A DNA stretch of 64,000 bases. Origin: Proteiniphilum sp. UBA5384. GTDB lineage: Bacteria > Bacteroidota > Bacteroidia > Bacteroidales > Dysgonomonadaceae. Location: NCBI RefSeq assembly GCF_002410825.1, contig NZ_DHOS01000034.1, forward strand, positions 90,088-154,087, in the 5' to 3' direction. Below the pieces are notes generated by a model. That model did no database searches. It saw only the letters and a program-made list of their open reading frames with translations, and was not told the origin of the DNA. Shown one piece after another: positions 30,764 to 48,292 of the stretch. The stretch's first letter is position 1. Every line of letters starts with the position of its first letter. The position numbers and the translations under genes were made by a program.

Positions 30764-30772
30764 ATCCGGAGA

Positions 30773-31993: not shown

Positions 31994-32908
31994 ATGAAAC
32001 CGTTGAAAAGAGAAGTGGCGGCGTATGCAGGTCTCACGTTGATGACTGTGATTATCGGGTTTTCTTTTATCTTTGTCAAGATCGCATTGCGTCATGCATC
32101 CACCACTGATTTGTTGGCACATCGATTTACAGCAGCCACAGTAGGCTTGTTGTGTTTTTACTTGTTCCGGCAAAAGGGATGGCCTGAACTTGGCGGGAAA
32201 AAGATGCTTCCCTTGCTTGTGACATCCCTTTTTTATCCGTTGCTGATGTTTTCGATGCAGACGGTGGGGTTACAATTTACTACTGCATCCGAAGCCGGCA
32301 TTTTATCGGCGACCACTCCCATCTTCACGATTATCCTTGCGGCACTGTTCCTTAAAGAGAGAAGCTCATTTTGGCAAATCATCTTTGTGCTATTATCAGT
32401 GGGAGGAATTGCCTACATCATGTACAAAAATGGATTAGGGGAAATAAGCAGTGAGACGTTGAAAGGTGATTTTTTTATCTTATTGTCTGTGGTATCGATG
32501 GCTATCTATTTTGTGTTGGGCAGGAAAGTCACCCAGCAGTTCGATGCCATGGATATTACTTTTTTCATGACGGTGGTTGCTTGCGTTGTATTCAACCTGC
32601 TTGCGGTAACAGATCACCTGAATTCAGGCACGTTACCGCTTTATTTTGATGCTTTCAAAAATATCGACTTTTTATGGACCATACTTTATCTGGGAGTGCT
32701 TTCTTCGTTCCTGACTTCATTCCTCACGAACAACGCTTTGAAGGTGATTCCGGCGTCGCAGGTCTCGATCTTCAATAACTTCAGCCCTGTGATAGCCGTT
32801 TTCGCCGGGGTGCTATTTTTGAATGAAACGCTCCATCTTTATCATATTATCGGAGGCATCATGGTACTGGTAGGAATTATCGGTGTGAATCTGTTAAAGA
32901 AGAAATGA
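31994..32908 (+). CDS. EamA/DMT family transporter
   Basis: About 10 TM helices in two EamA repeats; IGFSFIFVK, FLNETL. Confidence 0.92.
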   Translation: MKPLKREVAAYAGLTLMTVIIGFSFIFVKIALRHASTTDLLAHRFTAATVGLLCFYLFRQKGWPELGGKKMLPLLVTSLFYPLLMFSMQTVGLQFTTASEAGILSATTPIFTIILAALFLKERSSFWQIIFVLLSVGGIAYIMYKNGLGEISSETLKGDFFILLSVVSMAIYFVLGRKVTQQFDAMDITFFMTVVACVVFNLLAVTDHLNSGTLPLYFDAFKNIDFLWTILYLGVLSSFLTSFLTNNALKVIPASQVSIFNNFSPVIAVFAGVLFLNETLHLYHIIGGIMVLVGIIGVNLLKKK

Positions 32909-32946
32909 GGTTTAGATTACTTGAAAAATAGATTAAATATAAAGAA

Positions 32947-33276
32947 ATGATGAAAAATTGTCCAAACTGCAATGCTGAAGTTGAAAATAACTTCGAGTTA
33001 TGTTGGAACTGTAATTACAGTTTTAATGAACAAAGAATAGTTGATATCAAAGACATGGATGATGGGGGAAGATTGATTGACTGCTTAAGGTGTCATGTGC
33101 CTATGCTGTTTTCAGGAAAGTTCAAATTTCATGAGGGAACCAGAATGGGGATTTTAGGAGATTTATTTGAGATTTTTGTGAATCGGGAAGCATTTGACTT
33201 ATATGTATGTCCCAAATGTGGCAAGGTGGAGTTCTTTGCCCCGCTTGATAATAGCGGGTATAAATTTGATGAATAA
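32947..33276 (+). CDS. Small protein with four CxxC motifs (double zinc-ribbon-like)
   Basis: CPNC, CWNC, CLRC, CPKC. Confidence 0.75.
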   Translation: MMKNCPNCNAEVENNFELCWNCNYSFNEQRIVDIKDMDDGGRLIDCLRCHVPMLFSGKFKFHEGTRMGILGDLFEIFVNREAFDLYVCPKCGKVEFFAPLDNSGYKFDE

Positions 33277-33282
33277 AATAAA

Positions 33283-33645
33283 TTGAATGAAGACATTAAG
33301 ATTGGGAGCTCTAATGTATTAGCCTTTAGAGGCTATAGTTATACCAGTATATTGGTTGATATGAAAAGTGAAAAGCGAGTTGCTTCCGCAAAAGAGAAAG
33401 ATCAGGAAGTAATTCAACAATTGATTCGTCGGGTGATTAAGTGGGCTGATGAGGAGAGTTCATTGAGTTACCTGCCAACACGTAAGAATGATACTGCCCG
33501 TTTCCACTTGGGGCTTGATATGGATGAACACAGTAGAAGTCTAAAAAAAATGGAGGATACCAATTTTTTTTCAAAAGAGTTTTTAGATAATTACGATAAA
33601 ATTCATCGGAACTATTGAACGTATGTTGAAAATTAAAGCTTGATA
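33283..33645 (+). pseudogene. Fragment of a Bacteroidetes hypothetical protein
   Basis: Plausible protein-like text to NYDKIHR; a +1 frame continues TIERMLK before further stops; family resemblance is from memory only. Confidence 0.35.
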
Positions 33646-33727
33646 AAGATCAGCGTGTTGAGAAAGTAACAAGAAATGGGTTAAGCCCATATATTGGTCC
33701 CCAAATTTTAAATGAGGTGAAATATGT

Positions 33728-33846
33728 CTAAGGAACCGATTAATCCATGATTATATGGGTTAAACTATTTGATTTTCTGGGATGTGATAAGAAATAAGAT
33801 ACCTGAATTATATGAGCAGATAGTGGAAGTGGTTGATAAAGAGTAA
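33728..33846 (+). pseudogene. HepT/DUF86 (HEPN) toxin C-terminal remnant
   Basis: LRNRLIHDYMG (R-X4-H motif), then after a 1-nt deletion NYLIFWDVIRNKIPELYEQI. Confidence 0.75.
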
Positions 33847-33906
33847 GACACAATATTGACTGCTGCCAGGGTAAGTATCCCCATACTACTTATATCCATG
33901 AAGTTA

Positions 33907-35199
33907 TTAGATGGGGGCTGAAGCTTTTTCCATTTTCTTTTTGATCTCTTTAGTGCAGAGGTTGCCGATGCTGCCGGGGTGGGTGTGATGCACTTCTTTG
34001 GGTGCATGGAAAGTACCTGCCTGTACCTCTTTCCCTACTTGCTGATAGGCTTCGCGGAACGGGATGCCCTGCAATACGCGGTTGTTTACTTCTTCTACGG
34101 TGAAGAGGTATTCATACCGTGGGTCGGAGAGGATATTTTTGTTGACGGATATATTCTCAAGCATGAAACAGGTCATTTGTAAAAGCTTATGGAGCGTTTC
34201 CAGTGCGGGGAATAGTACTTCTTTCAATAATTGGTAATCGCGATGGTATCCATGGGGCATATTGGTGGTCATCAGCGTGATTTCATTGGGCAGGCTTTGC
34301 AGTCGGTTGCTATGACCCCGTATCAATTCCCATACGTCGGGATTTTTCTTGTGTGGCATAATACTCGACCCGGTGGTCAATGCATCGGGATAGGAGATAA
34401 AACCATAATTTCCTGAAAGATACATGCAGTTGTCGGCGGCCAGTTTATTGAGTGTGAAGGCGATATTGGACATGCTTTGTGCGAGGATACGCTCGGTCTT
34501 GCCGCGTCCCATCTGTGCGGCGACCACATTGTAATTCAGGGAGGCAAAACCCAATTCCCGGGTGGTCATCTCCCGATTCAGTGGGAAGGAACTGCCATAA
34601 CCTGCCGCGGACCCGAGGGGATTTTGATCGGCCACTTGCCATGCTGCGGCAAGTGTATGCATATCGTCCACCAATGTTTCGGCATAAGCGCCAAACCATA
34701 ACCCGAAAGAGGAGGGCATCGCCACCTGTCCGTGCGTATAACCGGGTAATAATACCTCTTTATGTTGTTCACTAAGGGATTGCAACAAGTCAAACAAAGC
34801 CAGGACCTCTTCTTTGATCTGTAGGATCTCCTCTTTGAGATACAGCTTGATATCGACCAATACCTGGTCATTGCGGGAGCGGCCGGAATGGATCTTTTTG
34901 CCCATCTCACCCAATCTCTCTGTCAGCATGGCTTCTACTTGTGAATGGATATCCTCGGCGTCATCGTCAAGCTTGAAATTGCCTTGTTCAACCTCCCTCA
35001 GGATGTTTTTCAATTCAGCTCTCAACGCCTTTTCTTCTTCCACCTCCAGAAGGCCGATCCCGACCAGCATCCTGATATGTGCCATTGATCCCAGAATATC
35101 ATGTTTGGCCAAACGTAAGTCGAGTTCGCGGTCGTTCCCCACGGTGAATTCTTCTACTTTTTTGTTGGCATCAAAGCCTTTATCCCATATTTTTGCCAT
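33907..35199 (-). CDS. argH: Argininosuccinate lyase
   Basis: HSGRSRNDQ, PGYTH, GSSIMPHKKNPD. Confidence 0.97.
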   Translation of the reverse strand: MAKIWDKGFDANKKVEEFTVGNDRELDLRLAKHDILGSMAHIRMLVGIGLLEVEEEKALRAELKNILREVEQGNFKLDDDAEDIHSQVEAMLTERLGEMGKKIHSGRSRNDQVLVDIKLYLKEEILQIKEEVLALFDLLQSLSEQHKEVLLPGYTHGQVAMPSSFGLWFGAYAETLVDDMHTLAAAWQVADQNPLGSAAGYGSSFPLNREMTTRELGFASLNYNVVAAQMGRGKTERILAQSMSNIAFTLNKLAADNCMYLSGNYGFISYPDALTTGSSIMPHKKNPDVWELIRGHSNRLQSLPNEITLMTTNMPHGYHRDYQLLKEVLFPALETLHKLLQMTCFMLENISVNKNILSDPRYEYLFTVEEVNNRVLQGIPFREAYQQVGKEVQAGTFHAPKEVHHTHPGSIGNLCTKEIKKKMEKASAPI

Positions 35200-35291
35200 C
35201 TCTTTTTCTTTTATGTTTTTTATTGCCTGTCCGAAACTGCATTTTTTCGTATAATCTCGTATAACCTCAGACAGCCTTGCATAATTGGTTG

Positions 35292-35299
35292 CAAATTTA
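35292..35299 (-). promoter_or_regulatory. Possible internal -7 box upstream of argH
   Basis: TAAATTTG on the minus strand in the 127-nt argE-argH gap. Confidence 0.4.
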
Positions 35300-35326
35300 C
35301 ATTTCTTTTCGGGGAGTTGAAAGTGA

Positions 35327-36391
35327 TTATTGTTGTTCAGCCAATTTTTCTATAAAATGGATGTATCCCTCAATTCCCTGTTGCAATTCTTTGATCCTCA
35401 CAAACTCGTCAGGACGATGGGATCGTTCTGATTCTCCCGGTCCCATTTTCAGGGCCGGGCAGGTAATTCGCATCCAATCGGAAGTAGTAGGGGAGGTGTA
35501 GCTTTCAATACCTAATTGTTGTACGCACAGCAGCAACGGATGACCAGTAGGTGTGGCCGAACTTCTATTGGTTAGTGACCGTGCTTTCAGTTCACTTTTC
35601 ACTATAGGCCGGAGGATCTCCATGATTTCGCTGTTGGTGTACATCTCTGTCGGACGGATATCCACCACGAAGCTACACCGGTCGGGAACTACATTGTGTT
35701 GTCTACCTGCATTGATCTGGGTGACAGTCAATTTCACTTCTCCCATTGTGAGTGATATTTTACTGAACTTCGTCGATCTAAGTATGTTGATATCATCGAT
35801 CGCAATGTAAAGCGCGTTCACTCCCTCATTACGGGCAGCATGTCCGCTTACCCCTTTCGCTTCTCCGTCGATCACCAGTAGTCCCCTTTCGGCTATGGCA
35901 GCCTTCATGCCGGTTGGTTCACCGATAATAGCCATACTTACTTCTTCGGAGAGATGTTGCCAAAGCAATCTCATCCCGTCGGTACCGGAATTCTCTTCCT
36001 CTGCCGACAATGCCAACAAGAGGTTGAAAGGTAATTCCTTCTCGTAAAAGTATAAAAATGTTTGTAATAATGTGACTACACTGGCGCCCGCGTCATTACT
36101 GCCCAACCCGTAGACATGAGTATTGGAACGGGGTGGGGTAAACGGATCGAAAGTATATCCGGTATTCGGGCGTACGGTGTCGAGATGCGAGTTTAGCATT
36201 AACGTTGGTTTTGATATGTTGTGATGAAGTTGGCGAACAATCAAGTTATTGCCGATGCGTTCTATGGAAATTCCTCTTTCACTGAAATATCCTGTCAGAA
36301 AGTTACTCCGAGGGCCTTCCTCTCCGGAGAATGATTGTATAGAAACCAGTTTTCTCAGCAACTCAACTGCGTTTTGTATATAAGAATCCAT
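35327..36391 (-). CDS. argE: M20 metallopeptidase, ArgE-type deacylase (probably acts on N-succinylcitrulline)
   Basis: NSHLDTV, GSNDAG, AEEE, GEPT, SHRPDE; operon context. Confidence 0.88.
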   Translation of the reverse strand: MDSYIQNAVELLRKLVSIQSFSGEEGPRSNFLTGYFSERGISIERIGNNLIVRQLHHNISKPTLMLNSHLDTVRPNTGYTFDPFTPPRSNTHVYGLGSNDAGASVVTLLQTFLYFYEKELPFNLLLALSAEEENSGTDGMRLLWQHLSEEVSMAIIGEPTGMKAAIAERGLLVIDGEAKGVSGHAARNEGVNALYIAIDDINILRSTKFSKISLTMGEVKLTVTQINAGRQHNVVPDRCSFVVDIRPTEMYTNSEIMEILRPIVKSELKARSLTNRSSATPTGHPLLLCVQQLGIESYTSPTTSDWMRITCPALKMGPGESERSHRPDEFVRIKELQQGIEGYIHFIEKLAEQQ

Positions 36392-36511
36392 TAAGAAATT
36401 AAAAAATTAAAAGTTAAAAGTGATATCCGGAATAAGACTTTATTAATTGACAATGAATTCTTCATTTCTCAATTTCAGACTTCTCCTTTAATTTGACACA
36501 TCAGTAAATCA

Positions 36512-37300
36512 TCACATTAAACTCGTCCCTTTTCCGGATAACAGGTTTTTTGCATGTAATACCACTACTTGTGATACGCCATTGTTGATCGCCTTGAAAG
36601 AGTTATCCAATTTGGGAATCATTCCATCCACGATAATACCCTGTTGTTTATAAACCGCATATTCTTCCCTATTCATGGTAAGTATCAGACTGTCCGGATC
36701 GTTTACATCCCCTAATACACCCTCTTTTTCAAAGCAATAATAGATCGTAACATTATATTTTTCCGAGAGCGCTGTAGCTACCGTATAGGCGATGGTGTCG
36801 GCGTTGGTGTTCAACAGTGAGCCGTTCTCGTCATGAGTAATAGCACAAAAAACGGGAGTAATATTGCTTTCGATCAATTTTGATATGAAGCCGGTATTGG
36901 TTTTATCCGGATCGGGATCGCCGACAAAACCAAAGTCGACGGGCACAGAGGAGCGTCGTATTGCCGGGATAGTGTTGGCATCCGCCCCTGAAAGGCCGAG
37001 AGCGTTGCAGCCTATTTTTTGCAGTAATGCCACTATATTTTTATTACCCCATCCGGCATATACCATTGTGACTACTTTAAGCGTTTCTTCGTCGGTAATA
37101 CGTCGTCCGTTTAACATTTTTGTCTCTATGCCGAGTTGTTTTGCCATCTTTGAAGCCATCACTCCTCCACCATGAACCAGTAGTTTATGTCCATCCAATT
37201 GGTGAAAGTCATACAGGAAGGATTCCAATGCTGCCGGATTATCTACTATATTTCCACCGATTTTTACAATCGAAAGGGTTGCTTTTTTATTCTCTGCCAT
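36512..37300 (-). CDS. argB: N-acylglutamate kinase
   Basis: KIGGN, VHGGG, NTNADT, GMIPKL. Confidence 0.95.
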   Translation of the reverse strand: MAENKKATLSIVKIGGNIVDNPAALESFLYDFHQLDGHKLLVHGGGVMASKMAKQLGIETKMLNGRRITDEETLKVVTMVYAGWGNKNIVALLQKIGCNALGLSGADANTIPAIRRSSVPVDFGFVGDPDPDKTNTGFISKLIESNITPVFCAITHDENGSLLNTNADTIAYTVATALSEKYNVTIYYCFEKEGVLGDVNDPDSLILTMNREEYAVYKQQGIIVDGMIPKLDNSFKAINNGVSQVVVLHAKNLLSGKGTSLM

Positions 37301-37353
37301 CTTTTTGTTAAATCGTTAAATCAACAAATCACATCAGTAAATCATTACATTAA

Positions 37354-38307
37354 CTACAGTCCCAGTAATATCTCTTTCAGTACCACTTGGGCCGAAACCA
37401 CGCGGTTGGCTGCTTCAGGAATTACTATCGATTGTGGGCTGTCGATCACTTCGTCACTGACGATCATATTACGTCGTACCGGCAGGCAGTGCATGAAATA
37501 TGCATTATTGGTCAGTGCCATTTTTTTTCGGTCTACTGTCCACGTGCGATCGGTGCTTAATATCTTTCCGTAGTTTGGATCCTTGAAAGCTGCCCAGTTC
37601 TTCGCATAGATAAAATCGGCATCTTTGTATGCCTTCTCCCTATCATATTCCACCATGGCATTGCCAACGAATTTCTCGTCCAACTCATATCCGACGGGAT
37701 GGGTGATCACGAAGTCATATCCGGTGGCGTTCATCCACTCGGCAAATGAATTGGGAACTGCCTGGGGCAGTGCCCTGGGATGAGGAGCCCAGGTGAGTAC
37801 CACTTTCGGCTTTTCCGTTTTTTTATATTCCTCTATCGTGATCAAGTCGGCAAAACTTTGTAACGGGTGGCGGGTGGCTGCTTCCATACTGAATACCGGT
37901 TTTCCGGAATATTGGATGAACTGATTCAGGATAACCTCGTTATAATCAGATGCTTTATCTTCGAACTGGGCAAATGAGCGCACTCCAATCACGTCGCAGT
38001 AGGATCCCATTACCGGAATTGCTTCAAGGATATGTTCCGGTTTATCGCCATCCATAATAACACCCTTTTCGGTCTCTAATTTCCATGCACCCTGATTGAT
38101 GTCGAGCACGATCACGTTCATCCCCAGGTTGAGCCCTGCTTTTTGGGTGCTCAAACGTGTACGCAGGCTCGAGTTGAAAAAAATCATCAATAAAGTCTTG
38201 TTTTTGCCCAACTCCTGGTCGGCAAAAGGATTTTCTTTGACCTGCCTGGCTTTTTCGAGTGCACTCTTCAGGTTACCGATGTCGTGTACGGATATGAAGT
38301 TCCTCAT
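37354..38307 (-). CDS. argF: N-succinylornithine carbamoyltransferase (ArgF')
   Basis: SLRTR, HPLQ, HCLP; residue 90 is Pro (GDKP90EH). Confidence 0.9.
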   Translation of the reverse strand: MRNFISVHDIGNLKSALEKARQVKENPFADQELGKNKTLLMIFFNSSLRTRLSTQKAGLNLGMNVIVLDINQGAWKLETEKGVIMDGDKPEHILEAIPVMGSYCDVIGVRSFAQFEDKASDYNEVILNQFIQYSGKPVFSMEAATRHPLQSFADLITIEEYKKTEKPKVVLTWAPHPRALPQAVPNSFAEWMNATGYDFVITHPVGYELDEKFVGNAMVEYDREKAYKDADFIYAKNWAAFKDPNYGKILSTDRTWTVDRKKMALTNNAYFMHCLPVRRNMIVSDEVIDSPQSIVIPEAANRVVSAQVVLKEILLGL

Positions 38308-39428
38308 ATTAATTTCTTTTTTAGTTCGGTGATGAAAAAATCAACGTCTTCTTTTGATATCGAGAGTGGCGGTAATAGTCGCATTACATTATTCTTTGCC
38401 CCTCCGGTAAAGATATGACTTTCGAAGAGAAGTTGGTTGCGGATATCTGCAAATTCAGGGAGAAACTCTATGCCGAGCATCAATCCCTGCCCACGAAGTT
38501 CTGTAATGCCCTCAATTTCTGATAACTTATGCCGGAGATAACTACCCACCTTTTCTGCGTTTTTTACCAGTGACTCTTCTTTTATGATATTGAGCACCGC
38601 AATGGCTGCTGCACAGGCAAGATGGTTTCCTCCAAAGGTGGTGCCGAGTATTCCTTTTTTTGCTTCGAATTTGGGAGAGATCAGCACGCCTCCGATTGGA
38701 AAACCGTTTCCCATCCCTTTGGCTATCGTGATTAAGTCGGGTCGTATGCCGGCTGATTGATGAGCAAAGAACTGGCCACTACGACCATATCCCGACTGTA
38801 TTTCATCGAGGATTAATATTACATCATTCTCGCTGCAGAGGGATGATAATTGCTGCAAAAATAAATTTTCGGGGGTATAGATACCTGCAACTCCGAGGAT
38901 ACCCTCGATAATGACAGCGGCGACATTCCCCTTGTTGATTTCGGTGGCTACCGCTTCTATATCGTTGAGCGGAACAAAAGTAACTACATGTCCTTTATTA
39001 TAAGGAGCCTGGATAGCCGGGTTGTCCGTGACTGCCACTGCTCCCGAGGTGCGTCCGTGGAACGCACCTCGAAAAGCGATCACACGTTTCTTTCCAGTAT
39101 GAAAAGAGGCCAGTTTTAATGCATTCTCGTTGGCTTCAGCACCGGAGTTACAAAGAAATAGTGAATAATCGGAATAACCGGATTGTTCACCCAGTTTATT
39201 AGCCAGTTCCAGCTGTAAAGAGTTCTGTACCGAGTTGGAGTAGAATCCGATCTTCTCTATCTGATGCTGTAACGTTTCTACATAATGAGGGTGAGAGTGT
39301 CCGATGGAAATGACAGCATGTCCCCCATAAAGATCCAGGTATTCCGTTCCTTCATTGTCCCATACATGGCAACCTTTACCCTGTACAGGCTCAATATCCC
39401 ACAAACTATATACGTCGAATAGGTTCAT
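38304..39428 (-). CDS. argD: N-acylornithine aminotransferase
   Basis: DEIQSGYGRSG, TIAKGMGNG, GTTFGGN. Confidence 0.94.
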   Translation of the reverse strand: MNLFDVYSLWDIEPVQGKGCHVWDNEGTEYLDLYGGHAVISIGHSHPHYVETLQHQIEKIGFYSNSVQNSLQLELANKLGEQSGYSDYSLFLCNSGAEANENALKLASFHTGKKRVIAFRGAFHGRTSGAVAVTDNPAIQAPYNKGHVVTFVPLNDIEAVATEINKGNVAAVIIEGILGVAGIYTPENLFLQQLSSLCSENDVILILDEIQSGYGRSGQFFAHQSAGIRPDLITIAKGMGNGFPIGGVLISPKFEAKKGILGTTFGGNHLACAAAIAVLNIIKEESLVKNAEKVGSYLRHKLSEIEGITELRGQGLMLGIEFLPEFADIRNQLLFESHIFTGGAKNNVMRLLPPLSISKEDVDFFITELKKKLI

Positions 39429-39517
39429 CCTTTTAAGTTAAAAATAAAAAATTAAATCCGAGACAAGATAAAATTGATTTGTAGATTAGCTGATTAAATT
39501 ATCATTACATCATTACA

Positions 39518-40492
39518 TCAGAACGCGTTTCCCTTCAATCGCAACCCCGTTGTTTCATCCAACCCGAACATCAGGTTCATGTTCTGCACAGCCTGTCCTG
39601 ATGCTCCTTTTACTAGATTATCAATGATAGAGGTGATATGGATATAGCCGTTATGGAATTCGATATGCAATAGACCTTTATTGGTATTTACCACCTCTTT
39701 CAGACTGATAGCTTGTTGAGATATGAACACGAACGGGGAGGATCGATAGTATCCTTTATATAGATCGATTACTTCCGGTTCAGGCAGAGAGCCGTTCCAT
39801 TTCGTATAGACACTGGCAAAAATACCACGGGTGAAATCACCCCGCATTGGCACAAAGTTGACCTGTGGCAGATTATTATTCCCTGCGCTTTTCAATGTAT
39901 TACCGATCTCTTCCAGATGTTGATGCGTGAAGGGTTTATATACTGAAATATTATTGTCACGGTAGCTGAAATGCGTAGTGTCACCCGGTTTTTTTCCTGC
40001 GCCGGTAGAACCTGTAATGGCATGCACATGTATTTCTTCTTTCAACAGATTCCGGGATGCCAAGGGCAATAGCGCCAGCATAATCGTCGTGGCGAAACAG
40101 CCTGGGTTGGCTACATTCATAGCGGTACGGATCTGTTCCCGGTTTTGTTCGCAGAGTCCAAATACAAAATGCCGGTTATTGAACACCGGATTATTACGGA
40201 AATCATTGCCAAGGTCAATAATCCTGCATGATGAGGGAATATTATTATCACTTAGAAAAGCCCGTGATAACCCATGTCCCAGACAAAGGAATATCACATC
40301 GGGTTGATGGAAGGTTTCGCTGAAGACCAGATTTGTGTCGCCCAACAAGTCACGATGTATTTCCGCTACCGGCGTTCCCACCGATGTAGTGCTAATCACC
40401 GACTCTATGTTTACTTCAGGGTGATGGAGCAGGATACGGAGCAGTTCTCCTGCTGTATACCCTGTTCCGCCGGCTATGCTTACATTAATCAT
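39518..40492 (-). CDS. argC: N-acyl-gamma-glutamyl-phosphate reductase
   Basis: GGTGYTA, ANPGCFAT, DNLVKGASGQAVQN. Confidence 0.96.
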   Translation of the reverse strand: MINVSIAGGTGYTAGELLRILLHHPEVNIESVISTTSVGTPVAEIHRDLLGDTNLVFSETFHQPDVIFLCLGHGLSRAFLSDNNIPSSCRIIDLGNDFRNNPVFNNRHFVFGLCEQNREQIRTAMNVANPGCFATTIMLALLPLASRNLLKEEIHVHAITGSTGAGKKPGDTTHFSYRDNNISVYKPFTHQHLEEIGNTLKSAGNNNLPQVNFVPMRGDFTRGIFASVYTKWNGSLPEPEVIDLYKGYYRSSPFVFISQQAISLKEVVNTNKGLLHIEFHNGYIHITSIIDNLVKGASGQAVQNMNLMFGLDETTGLRLKGNAF

Positions 40493-41675
40493 TGTCGTGA
40501 ATTGTATAATAAATTTTCAACGGGTTGGCGATTACTTTTGTGAATCCTACTACATCCTGGCCGGAGAATGATTTGTTGATCTCTCCGTATTCGCCGAATT
40601 TGGAATTCATCAGGTCGTATTCGCTGGAACATCCCAATACAGCGAAGTGATAAGGACGTAATTCTATTTCTACTTCACCCGTTACATAATGCTGGGTGTC
40701 GTTAAGGAATGTCTCGATATTGCGCATTACCGGTTCAAGGTATTGTGCCTCATGCATCAGTTGACCGTACCAATTGGCGAGCTGCTCTTTCCAATAGAGT
40801 TGTTGTTTGGTCAGTACATGTTTTTCCAACAGGTGATGCGCCTTGACGATGATCAGTGGAGCCGGAGCTTCAAAAGCGACACGTCCTTTGGTCCCGATAA
40901 TGGTATCGCCCACATGTACATCACGCCCGATACCATATTTCGAAGCAATCTTGTGTAACGTATGGATTAATGCAACGGGAGCCATCTTTTCACCATTGAG
41001 CGCGATCGGTTCGCCTTTTTCAAATTTTAAAGTGATGCGTTTCGTTCCCCTGTCGGTTACCTGTGAGGGATATGCCTCTTCGGGCAGTACGCCGGACGAT
41101 TTCAGTGTTTCCACGCCTCCTACGCTGGTTCCCCAGATTCCCTGGTTAATGGAATATTTCGATTTTTCCCATGAAAAGTCGAACCCTTTTTCTTTCAGGT
41201 AATCAATCTCCTGTTGACGGGAAAGGCATAACTCACGGATCGGTGCAATAATCTGTACTTCCGGTGCCAATACTTCAAATACCAGGTCGAACCGTACCTG
41301 GTCATTCCCGGCACCCGTACTCCCATGTGCCACGAAATCAGCACCTACTTCCTTTACATGATCCAGTATTGCCATTGCCTGAAAGAAACGCTCGGAACTG
41401 ACTGATAACGGATAGGTGTTATTTTTTAATACATTCCCAAAAATGAGGTATTTGATGCCTCTGCTATAATAGTCATCCACAGCATCGATGCAAGTGTGGG
41501 TGGAGGCGCCCAATTGTAATGCACGTGCTTCGATTGACTTTGCTTCTTCGTTTGAAAAACCGCCTGTGTTCACAATAACGGTATGTACTTCCAGTCCTTT
41601 TTCATTGATCAGCCAAGGCACACAAAACGAGGTGTCGAGGCCTCCACTAAACGCTAATACTACTTTTTTCTTCAT
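40485..41675 (-). CDS. argG: Argininosuccinate synthase
   Basis: LAFSGGLDTS, HGSTGAGNDQVRF. Confidence 0.97.
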   Translation of the reverse strand: MKKKVVLAFSGGLDTSFCVPWLINEKGLEVHTVIVNTGGFSNEEAKSIEARALQLGASTHTCIDAVDDYYSRGIKYLIFGNVLKNNTYPLSVSSERFFQAMAILDHVKEVGADFVAHGSTGAGNDQVRFDLVFEVLAPEVQIIAPIRELCLSRQQEIDYLKEKGFDFSWEKSKYSINQGIWGTSVGGVETLKSSGVLPEEAYPSQVTDRGTKRITLKFEKGEPIALNGEKMAPVALIHTLHKIASKYGIGRDVHVGDTIIGTKGRVAFEAPAPLIIVKAHHLLEKHVLTKQQLYWKEQLANWYGQLMHEAQYLEPVMRNIETFLNDTQHYVTGEVEIELRPYHFAVLGCSSEYDLMNSKFGEYGEINKSFSGQDVVGFTKVIANPLKIYYTIHDND

Positions 41676-42289
41676 TTTTTATGTAATTTATTGGTTTTTT
41701 TTATTTTGATGACCGGTTTTACCACCTTCTTTGCGAAAGGGCTAGCCTGCATCGCCGGCTGTACCTTAGGATCGTAGAGTAAACCTGTGCAGAGGCACAT
41801 CCTGTAGTTATTACGTTGAAGGATATCAAAATTCCTGCATCCCTGACATCCTTTCCAGAACTCTTCGTCATCGGTCAATTCAGAAAATGTGACAGGCTTG
41901 AATCCCAGTTCTGTATTCATTTTCATTACTGCCAGACCGGTCGTGATGCTGAATATTTTGGCATTCGGATAGAGTTTACGGGAAAGATCAAAAATTTTTC
42001 TTTTGATTTTCTTGGCCAGTCCCTGGTTACGATAATCGGGATGTACTACCAGTCCGGAATTAGCTACAAAACGCTTGTGACTAAAAGTTTCGATATAGGC
42101 AAAGCCCACTAGCTTATCACCATCGAGGGCGATCACCGCTTTGCCTGCTTCAATCTTTTCAGCTACATACTCAGCACTGCGTTTGGCAATACCTGTGCCG
42201 CGTGCTTGTGCAGACTCGTAAATAAGATCGCAAATCTCTTGCGCATAGTCTACGTAGCCGCTATTGGCAATATGAATAATTACATTCAT
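41672..42289 (-). CDS. GNAT acyltransferase, first gene of the arg operon (Bacteroidetes ArgA-like N-acylglutamate synthase)
   Basis: VVHPDYRNQGLA CoA-binding motif; position in operon; C-terminal CxxC...CxC. Confidence 0.8.
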   Translation of the reverse strand: MNVIIHIANSGYVDYAQEICDLIYESAQARGTGIAKRSAEYVAEKIEAGKAVIALDGDKLVGFAYIETFSHKRFVANSGLVVHPDYRNQGLAKKIKRKIFDLSRKLYPNAKIFSITTGLAVMKMNTELGFKPVTFSELTDDEEFWKGCQGCRNFDILQRNNYRMCLCTGLLYDPKVQPAMQASPFAKKVVKPVIKIKKTNKLHKK

Positions 42290-42329
42290 CCTAAAACAAT
42301 AAAATAATTAGAGAGTTGATTGTAAAGTG

Positions 42330-42385
42330 TTGCCCCGAGGGCAAAAAGATAAAAGGGGAAAGGTGCGGAACCCGAAGTTCACGCA
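42330..42385 (-). terminator. Attenuator-like hairpins in the arg leader
   Basis: TGCG-t-GAAC-ttcgg-GTTC-CGCA (42385-42364), then a pyrimidine tract, then TTGCCC-tcg-GGGCAA (42344-42330). Confidence 0.5.
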
Positions 42386-42389
42386 TAAT

Positions 42390-42455
42390 TCAAAAGCATC
42401 GTCGGACTAAGACTGCTGCTTGGGGATAGTGGATATGTGAAAAGTATATCTTCAT
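42390..42455 (-). CDS. Putative arg operon leader peptide MKIYFSHIHYPQAAVLVRRCF
   Basis: 21-codon uORF with tandem CGA CGA codons; starts 7 nt after a TAnnTTTG box and ends 4 nt before a hairpin. Confidence 0.6.
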   Translation of the reverse strand: MKIYFSHIHYPQAAVLVRRCF

Positions 42456-42462
42456 CAGGCTG

Positions 42463-42470
42463 CAAAAGTA
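42463..42470 (-). promoter_or_regulatory. -7 box of the arg operon
   Basis: TACTTTTG on the minus strand; no clear -33 TTTG. Confidence 0.6.
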
Positions 42471-42716
42471 ATCATTATATTTGTATTTGTTACTCTTTTC
42501 TGTGAAAAACTTACTAAAATCAGACTATTTCAGTCCTTTTGCATTATTTTTATGCCTGACATCGGCTTTGATGCATTCAAATGAATGAGAAATTTATTTC
42601 TACCCATTACTTAACGAAATAATTGTTTTTTTCTTTATAAACGGCAAACTGTTTTTTTATTTCCACAAAAAATACAAAAATGTATTAATTGAGTTGTCTT
42701 TTTGATACTTTTGTCT

Positions 42717-42724
42717 TATTTTTG
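42717..42724 (+). promoter_or_regulatory. -7 box for the radical SAM gene (a second box at 42706-42713)
   Basis: TATTTTTG and TACTTTTG. Confidence 0.45.
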
Positions 42725-42818
42725 CATAGTTGGAACTGCAATCTAGACCTCACTTCCCGTTTCGCGGGCACTTATTTACTTCCTGTGGTTCACCAAGCAG
42801 AACATAATTCAAATTGAT

Positions 42819-44150
42819 ATGGAAAATAAAAAGTATAGAAATTTCATTTTGCGTAATTATAATGATTTACCTCAATTGAGTGCCTTATCCGATCAGGAAA
42901 GGGAGGCAATAGGTGTTGTGGGCAGGGTGCTGCCTTTTAAGGCAAATAATTATGTGGTGGAGGAATTGATTAACTGGAACAATGTGCCGGAAGATCCTAT
43001 TTTTACGCTCACTTTTCCACGGGAGGAAATGCTCTCGAAAACCCATTATGCGCAGGTGAAGAAGTTGATTGATGCGGGGGATGATACGGCATTAAAACAA
43101 AAAGTATACGATATCAGGATGAAGTTGAACCCCAATCCGGCAGGACAGGAGCATAATGTGCCGACGGTAGACGGGGTAAAATTACATGGTATGCAGCATA
43201 AATATCGGGAAACGGTCCTTTTCTTTCCCAGTCAGGGACAGACCTGTCATGCTTATTGTACTTTCTGTTTCCGTTGGCCGCAATTTTCAGGTATGAATGA
43301 GTTAAAATTTGCGATGAAAGAAGCTGCTTTGCTTCACAAGTACCTGCTGAAACATCCCAAAGTATCGGACGTCCTTTTTACAGGCGGTGATCCGCTGACG
43401 GCAAAGGCCAGTATTATGGCAACCTATATCGAGCCGCTTCTGACAAAAGAGTTCTCTCATATCCGGAATATCCGTATCGGGTCGAAGACTTTGGCTTACT
43501 GGCCATACCGGTTTCTGACAGACAAAGATGCAGACGATATGTTGCGTTTGTTTGAGAAGGTGAAAAAGGCTGGTAAGCACCTTGCTTTCCAGGGGCACTT
43601 TAACCATCCGGTAGAACTTTCAACCGACGCAGTGCAACAAGCTATCCAGAGAATACTCAATACCGGAGCACAGATTAGGACCCAGTCGCCTTTACTGCGT
43701 CATATCAATGATAATCCCCAGACATGGGCTAATATGTGGAAAGAGCAGGTCAGGCAAGGTTTGATACCTTATTATATGTTTGTAGCACGGGATACCGGTT
43801 CCAAAACTTTCTTTGAAGTGCCGCTGGAAAAAGCATGGAATATTTTCAGGAAGGCTTATCGTAGTGTGAGCGGTATTTGCCGTACTGTCCGCGGACCCAG
43901 TATGAGTGCCAATCCGGGAAAGATACAAATCCTGGGTGTGACAGAGGTAAACGGGGAGAAAGTGTTTGTGTTGCGTTTTCTTCAGTGCCGTAATCCAGAC
44001 TTGGTGGATATACCTTTCTTTGCGAGATACGATAAAAAAGCGACATGGTTTGATGAACTCTCTCCGGCGTTTGGAGAGAAAGAATTTTTCTTCCAGAAAG
44101 ATAATCTGTTGGGAAGGCATGAAAGAGATGATGATTTTATGTGGGAATAG
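42819..44150 (+). CDS. KamA-family radical SAM/PLP aminomutase-like protein
   Basis: CHAYCTFC (CxxxCxxC), VLFTGGDPL, HFNHP, TQSPLL, PYY, PGK. Confidence 0.88.
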   Translation: MENKKYRNFILRNYNDLPQLSALSDQEREAIGVVGRVLPFKANNYVVEELINWNNVPEDPIFTLTFPREEMLSKTHYAQVKKLIDAGDDTALKQKVYDIRMKLNPNPAGQEHNVPTVDGVKLHGMQHKYRETVLFFPSQGQTCHAYCTFCFRWPQFSGMNELKFAMKEAALLHKYLLKHPKVSDVLFTGGDPLTAKASIMATYIEPLLTKEFSHIRNIRIGSKTLAYWPYRFLTDKDADDMLRLFEKVKKAGKHLAFQGHFNHPVELSTDAVQQAIQRILNTGAQIRTQSPLLRHINDNPQTWANMWKEQVRQGLIPYYMFVARDTGSKTFFEVPLEKAWNIFRKAYRSVSGICRTVRGPSMSANPGKIQILGVTEVNGEKVFVLRFLQCRNPDLVDIPFFARYDKKATWFDELSPAFGEKEFFFQKDNLLGRHERDDDFMWE

Positions 44151-44290
44151 AGGCTGAATTCATTCCTTTTTTTCTATTTATCAACAAAAAACTCAATGTT
44201 TTAAATAATTAACATTGAATTCGCTGATTTATTACTTATTTTGTTGGTTTGAAACGAGCATGACAACTGTTGTATGAAAATAGAAACACT

Positions 44291-45055
44291 ATGGGTCGAA
44301 TTATAGCTCTGGCAAATCAGAAGGGAGGAGTGGGGAAAACTACCACCACAATTAATCTTGCAGCATCGCTTGCCGCATTGGAAAAAAAAGTATTGGTTGT
44401 TGATGCCGATCCTCAGGCGAATGCTTCCTCGGGATTAGGCCTTGACATTAAAAAGGTAACCAACACCATTTATGAAGGCCTGATTGGTAAGTGTACCCCC
44501 GAAGAAGCGGTACAGCATACTCCATTCGAAAATATCGATATCATCTCCTCTCATATCAACCTGGTAGGCGCTGAGCTGGAAATGGTACAGATGGAAACCA
44601 GGGAGAAGAGATTGAGAAATCTTTTGCATCCGGTAAGTGATCGGTATGACTTTATCCTGATAGATTGTTCCCCCTCATTGGGCATTATTACGGTAAATGC
44701 ACTTACCGCTGCCGATTCGGTCCTGATTCCCGTGCAATGCGAGTATTTTGCACTGGAAGGATTGAGCAAGTTATTGAATACAATAAAGATTATTAAGTCA
44801 AAACTGAATACGAAGCTCGAGATAGAGGGTTTTGTCCTTACGATGTATGATTCCCGGTTGCGTCTTCATAACCAAATCTACGAAGAGGTGAAGCATCACT
44901 TCAAAGAATTGGTATTTACCACGGTTGTGCAGCGTAATATTACCCTCAGCGAATCACAGAGTCATGCCAAACCGGCACTCATGTACGATGCCGATTCACG
45001 TGGGGCGACAAATCATATACAGCTTGCACAGGAATTGATAGAAAAAAATTCGTAA
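44291..45055 (+). CDS. parA: Chromosome partitioning ATPase ParA/Soj
   Basis: NQKGGVGKTTT, DADPQANAS, IDCSPSLG, EYFALEG. Confidence 0.96.
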   Translation: MGRIIALANQKGGVGKTTTTINLAASLAALEKKVLVVDADPQANASSGLGLDIKKVTNTIYEGLIGKCTPEEAVQHTPFENIDIISSHINLVGAELEMVQMETREKRLRNLLHPVSDRYDFILIDCSPSLGIITVNALTAADSVLIPVQCEYFALEGLSKLLNTIKIIKSKLNTKLEIEGFVLTMYDSRLRLHNQIYEEVKHHFKELVFTTVVQRNITLSESQSHAKPALMYDADSRGATNHIQLAQELIEKNS

Positions 45056-45080
45056 CTTTGTATTCCTTACGGTATAGATT

Positions 45081-45989
45081 ATGGCGAAAAAGAATGCATT
45101 AGGACGGGGATTGGATGCTCTGATCACCTTTAATGACGGTGAGACTCAAGGCTCTTCTTCCATCAGTGAGGTGGACCTTGACAAGATTGTTCCTAACCCG
45201 GATCAACCACGTAGGGCATTCGATGAGGAGGCCCTGCGGGAATTGGCGATATCCATCGGGTCGATTGGTGTAATTCAACCTGTCACATTAAGGAAATTAG
45301 AAGATGATACCTACCAGATCATTGCCGGTGAACGTAGGTATCGTGCTTCTCAGATAGCCGGATTGGACACTATCCCGGCTTATATCAAGACAGCCGACAA
45401 TGAAGAGATGATGGAGATGGCGCTGATTGAAAATATTCAGCGTGAGGATCTGAATTCTATTGAAATTGCCCTGGCATATCAGAATTTGATTGACTCCCTG
45501 TCCCTTACCCAGGAGCAATTGAGCGAGAGGGTAGGTAAGAAACGTACCACTGTTACCAATTACCTGCGCTTGTTAAAACTTCCGGCCGAGGTGCAGATGG
45601 GGGTAAAAAATAAAAAGATCGACATGGGGCATGCACGTGCTTTGATCACCATGAACGATCCGGTGAAGCAACTTTCATTATATAACCTCATCCTTGAAGA
45701 AGGATTGTCGGTACGGAAAGTGGAGTCGATAGTGAAAGGTTTAGAAGAAGGCATATCTATTGAACAATTGAATGGTGCCGGCAGCAAAAAAAACAAAACT
45801 ACGAAGACTTCTGCTACACAACAATTGTCTGACGACTTTGATGCGTTAAAACAACATCTCTCCTCCTATTTCCAGACTGATGTGCAATTCAGTTGCAACA
45901 AGCGAGGGAAAGGGAAGATTACCATTCCTTTTGATTCTACGGAGGATCTGGAGCGTCTTATTGTTATGTTTGATAAAATGCAAAAATAA
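45081..45989 (+). CDS. parB: Chromosome partitioning protein ParB
   Basis: LGRGLDALI, NPDQPR, IIAGERRYRA, ENIQREDLN, GHAR. Confidence 0.96.
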   Translation: MAKKNALGRGLDALITFNDGETQGSSSISEVDLDKIVPNPDQPRRAFDEEALRELAISIGSIGVIQPVTLRKLEDDTYQIIAGERRYRASQIAGLDTIPAYIKTADNEEMMEMALIENIQREDLNSIEIALAYQNLIDSLSLTQEQLSERVGKKRTTVTNYLRLLKLPAEVQMGVKNKKIDMGHARALITMNDPVKQLSLYNLILEEGLSVRKVESIVKGLEEGISIEQLNGAGSKKNKTTKTSATQQLSDDFDALKQHLSSYFQTDVQFSCNKRGKGKITIPFDSTEDLERLIVMFDKMQK

Positions 45990-45995
45990 TCGCCG

Positions 45996-46763
45996 ATGAT
46001 GAATGTGCCCGGAATCATTATTTGTCTGTTGATCCTCTTTAGTACGGTTAATGCCCAGGCGCAGATCCAGTCACTGCAACAGTTGCAGGACTCTATTCCC
46101 GTATTGGTGGAAGATTCCACGCTCTTGCAGGCGACTGATTCCGTCTCGATAAATGCGAAAGATAGTAAACAAGAAACCGGGAAACAAGATTCTGTCCTGA
46201 CAAAAAAGGATAAACTACCCGTTGAAATTACTTCCGATAAATTTTTCGCTCCTTCCTATATGTTTAGCCCTTCTCCGCGTAAAGCGGTTATTTATTCGGC
46301 TCTCTTTCCCGGCCTGGGGCAGATTTATAACCGTAAGTACTGGAAACTGCCTATCTTGTATGGTGGTGTTGCAGGGTTAACCTATGCTATCACATGGAAT
46401 AATGGGTATTATCAATATTATCTGGGAGGCTATAAAGATATTATGGATGATGATCCCGCAACTAACCGCTGGCATAGCATGTTGCCCTATGGACAGGATC
46501 CGGAGACGGCAAATATCCAGCAGATTACAAGTGTCTTACAACGGCAGAAAGACCGTTATCGCTATTATAGGGATTTGAGTATTATCATCACATTTGGTGT
46601 TTATTTGATTACCATCATAGATGCCTATGTAGATGCACAGTTATTCGATTTTAATATGAGCCCCGATTTATCAATGCGTATGACCCCTGTGATTATCAGG
46701 GAAGAGCGGGGTAATAAACTTGGAAGTTCGTCCTACGGATTACAGTGGAGTTTTAATTTTTAG
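45996..46763 (+). CDS. DUF5683 family protein
   Basis: SALFPGLGQIYNRKYWK, IIDAYVDAQL; usual position after parB. Confidence 0.8.
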   Translation: MMNVPGIIICLLILFSTVNAQAQIQSLQQLQDSIPVLVEDSTLLQATDSVSINAKDSKQETGKQDSVLTKKDKLPVEITSDKFFAPSYMFSPSPRKAVIYSALFPGLGQIYNRKYWKLPILYGGVAGLTYAITWNNGYYQYYLGGYKDIMDDDPATNRWHSMLPYGQDPETANIQQITSVLQRQKDRYRYYRDLSIIITFGVYLITIIDAYVDAQLFDFNMSPDLSMRMTPVIIREERGNKLGSSSYGLQWSFNF

Positions 46764-46776
46764 CAGTAAGAACATC

Positions 46777-46799
46777 ACCCGCTCATCTTCTGAGTGGGT
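46777..46799 (+). other. 9-bp intergenic stem-loop before mltD
   Basis: ACCCGCTCA-TCTTC-TGAGTGGGT with a weak T tail. Confidence 0.5.
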
Positions 46800-46810
46800 A
46801 ATTATTTGGT

Positions 46811-48292
46811 ATGAAAAGAATTATTTTGATTGTATTGATAACTGTATGGTATGGATTAAGCCTTACAGGACAGGAAATCTCGCCAGGCGAAACAAAAAAT
46901 ATTGATGATAACGCAATCGTTTATCCCGAAAGTATGACGGAAAAACTGAGCGATTTGTTGCGCAATTGGCAACTTGACCTTTCGAATGCTGAGATCGATT
47001 GCAAAAGGGGACAAAATGTAACCTTCCACGATTCAATTTATACTAAGAGACTACACAATCTGCCCTCCGAGATGGAACTTTCATTCAATAGCGTAGTCAA
47101 GAATTATATAGAGATGTACGCTGTGCGGAAAAGAGAACAGGTCGGGTATATGCTGGCACTGGGCGACTATTATTTCCCGATGTTTGAGCAAGCATTAGAC
47201 AGGTATGGACTTCCATTGGAACTAAAATATCTGCCTGTGATTGAGTCTGCTCTGAACCCTGTGGCGGTTTCCCGTGCCGGTGCTACAGGGTTGTGGCAGT
47301 TTATGCTGCGTACAGGAAAAGGCTATGGGTTAGAAGTGAACAGCCTTGTAGATGAAAGGCGCGATCCCTATAAGTCTACAGATGCAGCTGCGCGTTATCT
47401 GAAGGATTTGTATGCCATTTATGGCGACTGGAATCTGGTGATAGCCGCCTATAATTGTGGTCCCGGAAATGTAAATAAAGCCATTGCCCGAAGTGGAGGC
47501 AAACACGACTATTGGGAAATTTACTACCGCTTGCCGAGGGAAACGAGAGGATATGTGCCGGCATTTATTGCAGCCAACTATATTATGCATCATTACACAG
47601 ATCATAATATCTGTCCGGCCTATTCTCCTTCGCTGACTACCGTTGCGATAGATACAGTGCATGTAAAAGAACGGATGCACCTCGAACAGGTTGCCGGAGT
47701 CCTGGATGTGCCATTGAGCGAACTGCAGAGATTGAACCCTCAATTCCGGAAAGATGTGATACCGGGTGATTTCAAACCGTATGCCTTGGTATTACCATCG
47801 GAAAAAATGTATGCTTTTATTGATAAAAACGATACCATCCTGAATTATCAGAAAGATCGTTACCTTACCCACAGGGCCACGACAGATGCTTTTCTGGATG
47901 GTTCTGTCTCAGCGGGATCGGGAAATACAGCCGATATCTATTATCGTGTAAAGAAAGGTGATAACCTCTCCACGATCGCCCGAAGGCATGGTACCACAGT
48001 AGCGCGGCTTAAATCATGGAATGGACTTCGTTCCAGTAATCTTAGTATAGGAAAACAGTTGATTGTAGGCAAAAAGAGGACACCTGCACCCCCACCGGCA
48101 GATAAAAACGAACTTTCATCTGGATCAGCGGTTGAGACTGAATCAGAACTCGAATTGGAAGCCGGAACCCGGGAGTACAACCGTAACAAAACGTCGGGGG
48201 GAAATGACATCATTTCCTCTTATTTGAAAAGCCAGATTGAAAAAGCTGAACAGAGGAATATAATGGAAAAAGAGGAAGGCTCCGCTGAATAA
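46811..48292 (+). CDS. mltD: Lytic murein transglycosylase with LysM (MltD-like)
   Basis: VIESAL, AGATGLWQFM, AAYNCGPG, ETRGYV; LysM YRVKKGDNLSTIA. Confidence 0.92.
   Translation: MKRIILIVLITVWYGLSLTGQEISPGETKNIDDNAIVYPESMTEKLSDLLRNWQLDLSNAEIDCKRGQNVTFHDSIYTKRLHNLPSEMELSFNSVVKNYIEMYAVRKREQVGYMLALGDYYFPMFEQALDRYGLPLELKYLPVIESALNPVAVSRAGATGLWQFMLRTGKGYGLEVNSLVDERRDPYKSTDAAARYLKDLYAIYGDWNLVIAAYNCGPGNVNKAIARSGGKHDYWEIYYRLPRETRGYVPAFIAANYIMHHYTDHNICPAYSPSLTTVAIDTVHVKERMHLEQVAGVLDVPLSELQRLNPQFRKDVIPGDFKPYALVLPSEKMYAFIDKNDTILNYQKDRYLTHRATTDAFLDGSVSAGSGNTADIYYRVKKGDNLSTIARRHGTTVARLKSWNGLRSSNLSIGKQLIVGKKRTPAPPPADKNELSSGSAVETESELELEAGTREYNRNKTSGGNDIISSYLKSQIEKAEQRNIMEKEEGSAE

Follow-up and report, generated by a model that had tools for sequence, protein, structure and literature searches.

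Introduction

Leader-peptide attenuation is known for the tryptophan, histidine, leucine, threonine, phenylalanine and isoleucine/valine operons, and in Bacteroidetes the trp operons are preceded by the Bacteroid-trp motif. Arginine biosynthesis is the textbook case of repression by ArgR, which the arg genes of E. coli use, and we know of no leader-peptide attenuator for arg operons. Here, we analyzed a stretch of 64,000 nucleotides from Proteiniphilum sp. UBA5384 (Dysgonomonadaceae, Bacteroidales; contig NZ_DHOS01000034.1, positions 90,088 to 154,087), referred to throughout as the window, in which the arginine-biosynthesis operon is preceded by a short upstream open reading frame (uORF) with two consecutive CGA arginine codons close to its end. 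This uORF probably encodes a leaderless leader peptide that senses Arg-tRNA.

The fungal arginine attenuator peptide (AAP), encoded by the CPA1/arg-2 uORF, uses the nascent chain rather than Arg codons to sense free arginine, and its stalled ribosome blocks eukaryotic scanning. The window element resembles it in lying upstream of an arginine-pathway gene and in an arginine control that would act by ribosome stalling, whereas codon identity is the conserved feature of the window leader. In Salmonella and E. coli, two consecutive Arg codons of speF orf34 (SpeFL) sense arginine, and pausing of the ribosome at low arginine alters the folding and fate of the mRNA (PMC6386406). Translation of this uORF also counteracts Rho, and in Salmonella pausing at the two codons gives an RNase G-resistant fold (PMC6386406). 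The speF leader differs from that of the window in that it controls an ornithine decarboxylase, comprises 34 codons with an ornithine-sensing arrest domain, has RNase G sensitivity as its output and belongs to another phylum. A first-pass annotation of the window had held the uORF to be unrelated to AAP and SpeFL, and BLASTP indeed gave no alignment of the window uORF with the sequences taken for these two peptides. In Staphylococcus aureus, rare Arg codons in the small uORF rbfL sense arginine limitation by ribosome pausing (PMC13009471). In this case the paused ribosome covers the neighbouring ribosome-binding site and thus keeps a biofilm regulator from being translated, whereas the first gene of the window operon begins 100 nucleotides (nt) downstream and starvation should raise its expression. 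speF orf34 and rbfL are the nearest functional precedents for Arg-codon sensors, and neither controls arginine biosynthesis.

With the amino acid attenuators trpL, hisL, leuL, thrL, pheL and ilvL the window leader shares a short open reading frame (ORF) in the 5' leader of a biosynthetic operon, tandem cognate codons two to three codons before the stop, and consecutive hairpins. Its stop codon lies about 5 nt before the first hairpin, which is the geometry of trpL and its region 2; no region 4 was found here. Unlike these attenuators, the window leader would sense arginine, is predicted to be leaderless rather than Shine-Dalgarno-driven, has neither a U-run terminator nor a conserved antiterminator alternative, and uses a fixed rare codon, CGA, as its sensor. 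The sensor features of leader-peptide attenuators are thus present, and their terminator and antiterminator are lacking in the clade of the window. The argR-GNAT-argG... operons of Bacteroides and Parabacteroides correspond to the window in the operon itself, in GNAT as its first gene and in promoter type. They begin with argR, carry ARG boxes (12/12) and have no Arg-rich uORF, and the window shows the reverse. Leaderless mRNAs are rare in Bacteroides thetaiotaomicron, at about 3.7% (PMC7366714). A full-text literature search yielded no paper on a leader peptide of Bacteroidota arg operons, and a leader of such form for arginine operons appears to be previously undescribed.

Organization of the leader and promoter

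All leader features lie on the minus strand and are given in coordinates of the 64-kb window.

42463..42483, minus strand: promoter, extended -7 element AAATATAATGATTACTTTTG, a block kept in 43 aligned promoters
42470-42463, minus strand: core Bacteroidota box TAnnTTTG, here TACTTTTG, by direct reading; the ATG follows 7 nt later
42390..42455, minus strand: uORF of 21 codons plus TGA, MKIYFSHIHYPQAAVLVRRCF, with the ATG at 42455 and the stop at 42392-42390
42438..42454, minus strand: weak 5'-terminal hairpin UGAAGA / UUUUCA, which takes in the U and G of the start codon
42394..42421, minus strand: helix P0 within the uORF, AAGCA (42421-42417) with UGCUU (42398-42394), GUC CGA CGA in the loop
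42399..42404, minus strand: tandem rare CGA CGA, the proposed sensor; sole Arg codons of the uORF, two codons before the stop
42364..42385, minus strand: hairpin 1 (UGCG-U-GAAC / UUCGG / GUUC-CGCA), from +5 after the stop
42345..42363, minus strand: pyrimidine tract CCUUUCCCCUUUUAUCUUU between the two hairpins
42330..42344, minus strand: hairpin 2, a short GC-rich stem-loop UUGCCC UCG GGGCAA, -7.1 kcal/mol
42290..42329, minus strand: spacer, CA-rich then AU-rich, with the translation start region of GNAT (..UUAUUGUUUUAGG AUG)

The codons of the uORF are ATG AAG ATA TAC TTT TCA CAT ATC CAC TAT CCC CAA GCA GCA GTC TTA GTC CGA CGA TGC TTT TGA. The first-pass annotation had described the box, the ATG, the 21-codon ORF, the CGA CGA pair, both hairpins and the pyrimidine tract, and each of them was found exactly where it had been placed. 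In the window, hairpin 1 consists of 8 base pairs with one bulge (-8.6 kcal/mol), and 40 nt separate hairpin 2 from the ATG of GNAT at 42289. TAnnTTTG is the consensus of the Bacteroidota promoter (PMC7366714). The uORF starts 0-3 nt from the predicted transcription start and would therefore be effectively leaderless.

Taken alone, the window presents a pattern that is only mildly unusual, with weak statistical support. The combination of the box, an ATG within 3-12 nt, an ORF of 10-40 codons and RR among the last 6 residues occurs twice in the window versus 0.13 times expected from shuffles, no further copy of the leader motif in the window is above chance level, and the fold energy of the whole window leader is no better than that of shuffles (z = -0.98). 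The leader rises above chance because it is conserved in 44 orthologous leaders. A second TAnnTTTG box with an ATG (gap 7) is found at ~35100 on the minus strand, near the 5' end of argH, and opens a 26-codon ORF ending in ..KKKRR; we take it for a chance match, and its position falls within the argH coding sequence (35199-33907). In the promoter region, a T-run block (GATTTTTTTC-like; window 42501-42510) is conserved in the aligned promoters of 43 relatives. With about 30 nt between it and the extended -7 element, the block lies too far upstream for the usual -33 TTTG motif.

Conservation of the uORF among relatives

Orthologous loci were fetched by GNAT homology with one genome per species, and a DNA-pattern scan with the conserved block served as a second retrieval. 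The uORF is present at the same place in 20 of the 21 closest GNAT-homology loci. Among the 120 pattern matches listed, 37 precede a GNAT orthologue by 103-137 nt, and one further match has the full box and uORF in a locus that ends before the downstream gene is readable; the other 82, mostly from unrelated phyla, are without this architecture, and their number is about that expected by chance. The scan added 23 distinct leaders and brought the total after removal of duplicates to 44, from species-level Proteiniphilum/Fermentimonas-like genomes (Bacteroidales). The exception among the 21 closest loci is a Petrimonas metagenome-assembled genome (MAG; L014), where the same promoter box is followed by a different short leader (ATGCATGGTTAA) and a hairpin (L014:2700-3000). 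No argR is found within 3 kb in L014, which may be a natural loss-of-leader variant.

In 44 of 44 leaders the TAnnTTTG box precedes the uORF ATG by 4-12 nt, with a gap of 7 in most, in keeping with the nearly leaderless uORF that had been proposed. The uORF has a length of 21-23 codons (26 in one leader), its stop lies 84-118 nt from the GNAT start, and its consensus is M-K-x-x-F-S-H-(T/I)-H-(Y/F)-x-K-A-T-x-L-V-R-R-C-F-stop. Every leader uses ATG as its start codon, and the stop swaps between TAA and TGA. Synonymous variation is seen at Leu(-7) (CTG, TTA, TTG, CTA), at Thr(-9) (all four ACN codons) and at Asp(-8), and alignment gaps within the uORF span 3 or 6 columns, i.e. they are in frame. 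As far as the alignment can tell, this substitution pattern is that of a coding sequence, and the uORF, with its frame conserved in 44 species, looks translated. Purifying selection acts on the ORF and its frame, on its placement next to the promoter, on the CGA pair and on both downstream hairpins, and the element occurs only ahead of the arg operon. Comparison of six leader peptides with NCBIfam and Pfam (E up to 10) returned no family; Rfam gave noise only for window 41500-43500 (E up to 10) and no match at the gathering threshold for 15 related loci.

Invariance of the CGA codons

At the two Arg positions of the uORF, 43 species use CGA without exception (86/86), an apparent invariance that is inflated by the retrieval of 23 of the 44 leaders with the conserved block itself; the 20 homology-retrieved leaders carry the same CGA pair. 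The expectation that orthologous leaders would retain the uORF and its Arg codons is thereby borne out. The adjacent codons are fixed as well, with GTC for the Val before the Arg pair in 39/39 and TGC for the Cys after it in 42/42. In the long ORFs of the window CGA is the rarest Arg codon (9%), and none of their 37 Arg-Arg pairs is CGA-CGA. For comparison, the commonest codon at conserved residues of GNAT in the same genomes averages 58% of species, and in 2 of 114 conserved-residue columns one codon reaches at least 95%. Synonymous sites in GNAT are thus near saturation, and therefore the codon invariance of the uORF reflects selection. Bacterial CGA is read by an inosine-containing tRNA-Arg via a weak I:A wobble, and the system would also bear on such codon-specific decoding as a metabolic sensor. 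A programmed frameshift at UUU-U-stop was considered and rejected, as UUC variants in 4 species break the slippery run.

Structure of the leader RNA

Hairpin 1 is found at +5..+26 after the stop in most species, with -5 to -12 kcal/mol. RNAalifold predicts 7 pairs for it, 6 of them with compensatory changes; 91% of alignment cells are paired, and the mean z versus shuffles is -3.4. Nearly all species have hairpin 2, at about +46..+60; its stem takes 26 different sequences, and its mean z is -2.0. In P0 (AAAGCA:UGCUUU), 92% of cells are paired, and 3 species have G-C in place of the A-U pair at columns 47-76, where a change of the Lys codon AAA to the Glu codon GAA is matched by one of the Phe codon from UUU to UUC. 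The weak 5'-terminal hairpin has 83% of cells paired, and both sides change in 3 of its 6 pairs. The covariation score of three helices taken jointly is above that of all 500 shuffles and all slid registers. Stem covariation, which had been put forward as a check, is thus seen, and both hairpins are kept by compensatory changes.

Across species the tract between the hairpins keeps its composition (C 34%, U 45%, G 6%) and not its sequence. The leader after the stop has 24% C and 13% G, and a CA-rich tract follows hairpin 2, a composition that could suit Rho-dependent leaders governed by a uORF (tna, speF and mgtA type); however, the single-stranded segments measure only about 20-40 nt each and alternate with the hairpins. 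The tails in the window are CCUUUCCC for hairpin 1 and CACUUUAC for hairpin 2, and in most species the hairpin 2 tail is CA-rich rather than U-rich. Tails with 5-7 U in the first 8 nt are a minority (L003, L019, L020, L097, L148, L176, L187). Terminator-like sites in 28000-47900 of the window are no commoner than in shuffles.

Several alternative pairings were tried and rejected. When a ribosome was placed over either the Arg codons or the stop as a folding constraint, no consistent alternative of the kind expected for a classical switch emerged. Pairing of the Arg block with hairpin 2 is strong in one clade (CCGACG:CGUCGG) and not significant overall (mean z -0.35), and for the 5' end a species' own pyrimidine tract is no better a partner than that of another species (mean z -0.22). 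The tract after hairpin 1 could mask the GNAT start (AUCCU:AGGAU) in some species only, and the element persists in species with a different start region. A pairing between 'ACAGAC' of the uORF and the 3' arm of hairpin 1 is available in clade A, which is not the case in the clade of the window; no conserved partner was found for the freed 3' arm of hairpin 1.

ArgR and ARG boxes as an apparent alternative arrangement

That argR is not adjacent to the operon, as noted in the first-pass annotation, extends to the whole 64-kb window, in which tblastn with Bacteroides ArgR found none (best E = 3.2); argR is also absent from all uORF loci by tblastn. In 12 other Bacteroidales loci, of the Bacteroides type, argR immediately precedes GNAT; each of the 12 promoters bears ARG-box-like palindromes, and none of these loci has an Arg-rich uORF. 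No ARG-box-like site with up to 2 mismatches occurs in window 42290-42818, and among the uORF leaders one of 44 has such a site (up to 1 mismatch). The uORF arrangement and the argR/ARG-box arrangement look like alternatives, and the uORF element replaces the argR and ARG-box layout of other Bacteroidales.

A perfect inverted repeat, ATTCAttTGAAT (ATTCA-tt-TGAAT), is present at 42586-42575 on the minus strand, about 105-115 nt upstream of the promoter box. It was rejected as an ArgR operator: the order of its half-sites is wrong, the resemblance is only superficial, and it is conserved in no related locus.

Arg-codon leaders in other lineages

In other groups, too, uORFs stand before the same operon; they are unrelated to that of the window and have tandem or clustered Arg codons at the end or close to it. 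Other Bacteroidales uORFs end in ..HVRRCA, ..ARVRR or ..NRRARR. Four Flavobacteriaceae loci (L028, L030, L039, L043) have a leaderless-looking uORF of 22-24 codons 280-350 nt upstream of GNAT, with the ends ..KRRRYC, ..STRRRF, ..ISRRSI and ..SRHRS. In Chitinophagales, CGA CGA is invariant in 13 loci and a third Arg codon varies (ends ..YLSRRPRI and ..LIRRQRI). The leaders of this order are located as follows.

about 120-150 nt upstream of GNAT: Chitinophagales leader loci L057, L060-L062, L064, L066, L070, L074, L077, L080, L075, L052 and L053

In Chitinophaga, a U-rich tail follows the second hairpin downstream of the uORF in most loci read.

Some further features of these leaders were observed. 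Two of the four Flavobacteriaceae loci (L030 and L039, with an ATG start) contain a second mini-ORF, MCHIFPRRP or MCFIYPRRP, the stop codon of which sits in the loop of a conserved hairpin (CGCCCGUAAGGGU). L028 has kept the tail CGC CGC CCG TAA and has no in-frame ATG, and L043 differs in frame. The Chitinophagales ORF is longer (...AYHPSL.EG.YSIGFNVFRYLSRRPRI or ...SISKLIRRQRI) and mostly without an in-frame ATG, a conserved TTG being the best start candidate. L075 is labelled Beijerinckiaceae yet bears a Chitinophagales-type leader, and its contig may be mis-binned.

Transcriptome contigs

The RNA evidence consists of assembled contigs from public transcriptomes, not of reads. At the Chitinophaga pinensis locus (L060), contigs of near-identical strains contain a leader-only RNA from about 2655-2675 to about 2896-2923 (L060:2655-2925; runs coded X25-X28, X30, X33 and X43). 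The 3' end of this RNA coincides with the second hairpin, and nothing is assembled downstream of it. In one run an abundant contig (depth 846; read-through contig 120) ends at L060 2846, the last base of the first CGA, and a second contig of 43 nt joins L060 2846 to adapter sequence. This end could mark ribosome pausing, with the second CGA occupying the A site, or A-site cleavage; the same base is also the 3' base of a predicted hairpin.

For L012, a clade-A relative, contigs from 8 metatranscriptomes (100% identity) run from the leader into GNAT, and in none of these 8 does an RNA contig reach upstream of the uORF. The contig that reaches furthest in the 5' direction borders on adapter sequence at +8, counted from the A of the start codon. 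Since these contigs do not extend upstream of the uORF, a leaderless transcript is supported, in agreement with the box-to-ATG spacing.

Proposed mechanism and alternatives

The best reading of these data is, with fair probability, a leaderless leader peptide that senses Arg-tRNA. Transcription would start a few bases after the TAnnTTTG box, such that the mRNA begins essentially with the AUG of the uORF. When charged tRNA-Arg is scarce, ribosomes would wait at CGA-CGA, and the parked ribosome would raise operon expression; with ample arginine, it would instead reach the stop and leave, and the leader would be shut off. With an Arg-codon leader in place of argR and ARG boxes, the regulatory logic of one pathway would have been swapped within one bacterial order. 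Such a leader would furthermore provide a compact system for leaderless translation in Bacteroidota and for the action of uORFs in a phylum largely without Shine-Dalgarno pairing. On the practical side, Bacteroidales would gain a genetic part that responds to arginine, and the small gene, which goes uncalled in dozens of genomes, could be annotated by rule.

A number of observations weigh against this reading. In addition to the inflated figure for codon invariance, non-Arg residues of the peptide are conserved too (S-H, K-A-T, L-V..C-F), for which a peptide-specific role is possible. The searches for argR covered the window and the related loci, and an ArgR could be encoded elsewhere in the genome. 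The link to arginine in the window organism is inferred from sequence, and for its relatives the metatranscriptome depth is too low to show attenuation. A consensus scan found no intrinsic terminator in the leader, the hairpin tails of most species have 1-4 U in their first 8 nt, and no conserved mutually exclusive pairing was found in the leaders. The geometry of the leader is a further difficulty. When the second CGA occupies the A site, the ribosome extends over the RNA to about the stop codon, 3-7 nt short of hairpin 1, so that a ribosome at CGA-CGA leaves hairpin 1 folded and one at the stop would melt it. With hairpin 1 folded during a stall at the Arg codons, expression at low arginine is therefore not given by itself, and simple coupling models with hairpin 1 as terminator or pause site predict the wrong sign.

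The first-pass annotation had coupled Arg supply or ribosome stalling to termination. The sensor half of this proposal is strongly supported by the conserved uORF and CGA pair; the termination half is a conjecture, with no U-run in most species and no conserved antiterminator found. As the output, Rho- or factor-dependent premature termination in the C-rich, G-poor leader is a tentative proposal, and the order of pyrimidine tract, hairpin and CA-tract recalls a split rut site. Control of mRNA decay by the parked ribosome, through access to the 5' end or to RNase sites, would resemble Salmonella speF orf34 and seems rather unlikely. A classical hairpin switch with an intrinsic terminator is more doubtful still, and what probability remains falls to some other output. 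In a wider sense, Bacteroidota arg operons without a linked ArgR might share an undescribed class of leaders that sense arginyl-tRNA at the slowly decoded CGA-CGA, are leaderless in Dysgonomonadaceae and act via Rho access or mRNA decay instead of a terminator/antiterminator switch; we put this generalization forward with some reserve. If it is true, arginine biosynthesis would have its first known case of ribosome-mediated attenuation, and the class could serve as a model for the control by uORFs in a phylum without Shine-Dalgarno initiation.

One alternative is an arrest peptide resembling AAP or TnaC, in which ...LVRRCF together with free L-arginine in the exit tunnel would stall the ribosome at or near the stop, hold hairpin 1 open and turn the operon off at high arginine. 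Conservation does reach well past the two Arg residues, a ribosome arrested at a stop that is fixed 4-5 nt before hairpin 1 keeps this hairpin melted, and the regulatory sign comes out right without an antiterminator. This explanation is nevertheless weaker because codon identity and not only the peptide is conserved: the unbroken use of CGA (86/86) and its recurrence in unrelated Chitinophagales and Bacteroidales peptides point to decoding rather than to the peptide. The C-terminal residues moreover differ among the families (RRCF, RRPRI, RRQRI, RRRF, VRR), and the BLASTP comparison with the AAP and SpeFL sequences showed no similarity. Altogether we regard an arrest peptide as improbable.

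Still somewhat less probable is a translated uORF that merely sets a constitutive level, by mRNA stability or Rho protection, while ArgR or another regulator encoded elsewhere exerts the arginine control. The restriction of the ArgR search to the 64-kb window and the non-canonical output platform leave room for this explanation. It is countered by the promoter and leader, which are free of ARG boxes while 12 of 12 argR-linked operons have boxes at the promoter, and by the rare tandem cognate codons before an arg operon, whose repeated appearance in independent lineages would be difficult to account for if arginine were not sensed.

We give slightly less weight again to a functional micro-protein of 21 residues, for example a partner of an arginine-pathway enzyme, that is co-transcribed and has no role in cis. 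Purifying selection on several non-Arg residues would suit it, and many bacterial small proteins are unannotated. It leaves unexplained the invariance of a rare codon, the fixed spacing from the stop to a covarying hairpin, the structured untranslated spacer of 84-118 nt, the mutual exclusivity with argR and ARG boxes, and the unrelated Arg-ending peptides at the same place elsewhere; the peptide also has no Pfam or NCBIfam match. Finally, a structured RNA that binds a protein or ligand, or a DNA operator of a distant regulator, with an incidental ORF would fit nucleotide-level blocks that include third codon positions (UCACAU, AAAGCA, GUCCGACGAUGCUUU) and four hairpins, three of them with some covariation, and is very improbable in view of a frame open in 44/44 leaders, an ATG fixed at the promoter, in-frame indels, TAA/TGA swaps and synonymous changes, together with no Rfam family (E up to 10), no ARG-box-like palindrome and a sole intergenic palindrome that is not conserved.

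The arginine operon and its neighbours

The operon downstream of the leader (33907..42289, minus strand) is a complete arginine-biosynthesis set. Its genes were assigned from the ORF list and NCBIfam.

42289-41672, minus strand: GNAT acetyltransferase, first gene of the operon
41675-40485, minus strand: argG
40492-39518, minus strand: argC
39428-38304, minus strand: argD
38307-37354, minus strand: argF', N-acetylornithine carbamoyltransferase-like
37300-36512, minus strand: argB
36391-35327, minus strand: argE-like (ArgE/DapE-family deacylase)
35199-33907, minus strand: argH

The GNAT protein of the window is 98% identical to the GNAT of a Proteiniphilum MAG. Start and stop codons overlap at GNAT/argG (41672-41675), argG/argC (40485-40492) and argD/argF' (38304-38307). 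These overlaps suggest translational coupling, and control at the first gene could therefore spread down the operon.

The divergent neighbours at 42819-45055 on the plus strand are a gene for a KamA-family radical-SAM aminomutase-like protein and one for a parA-like ATPase. The best specific NCBIfam match of the KamA-family gene is arginine 2,3-aminomutase, below the cut-off. The synteny of KamA and parA with the arg operon is kept in Petrimonas (L014:371-2681).

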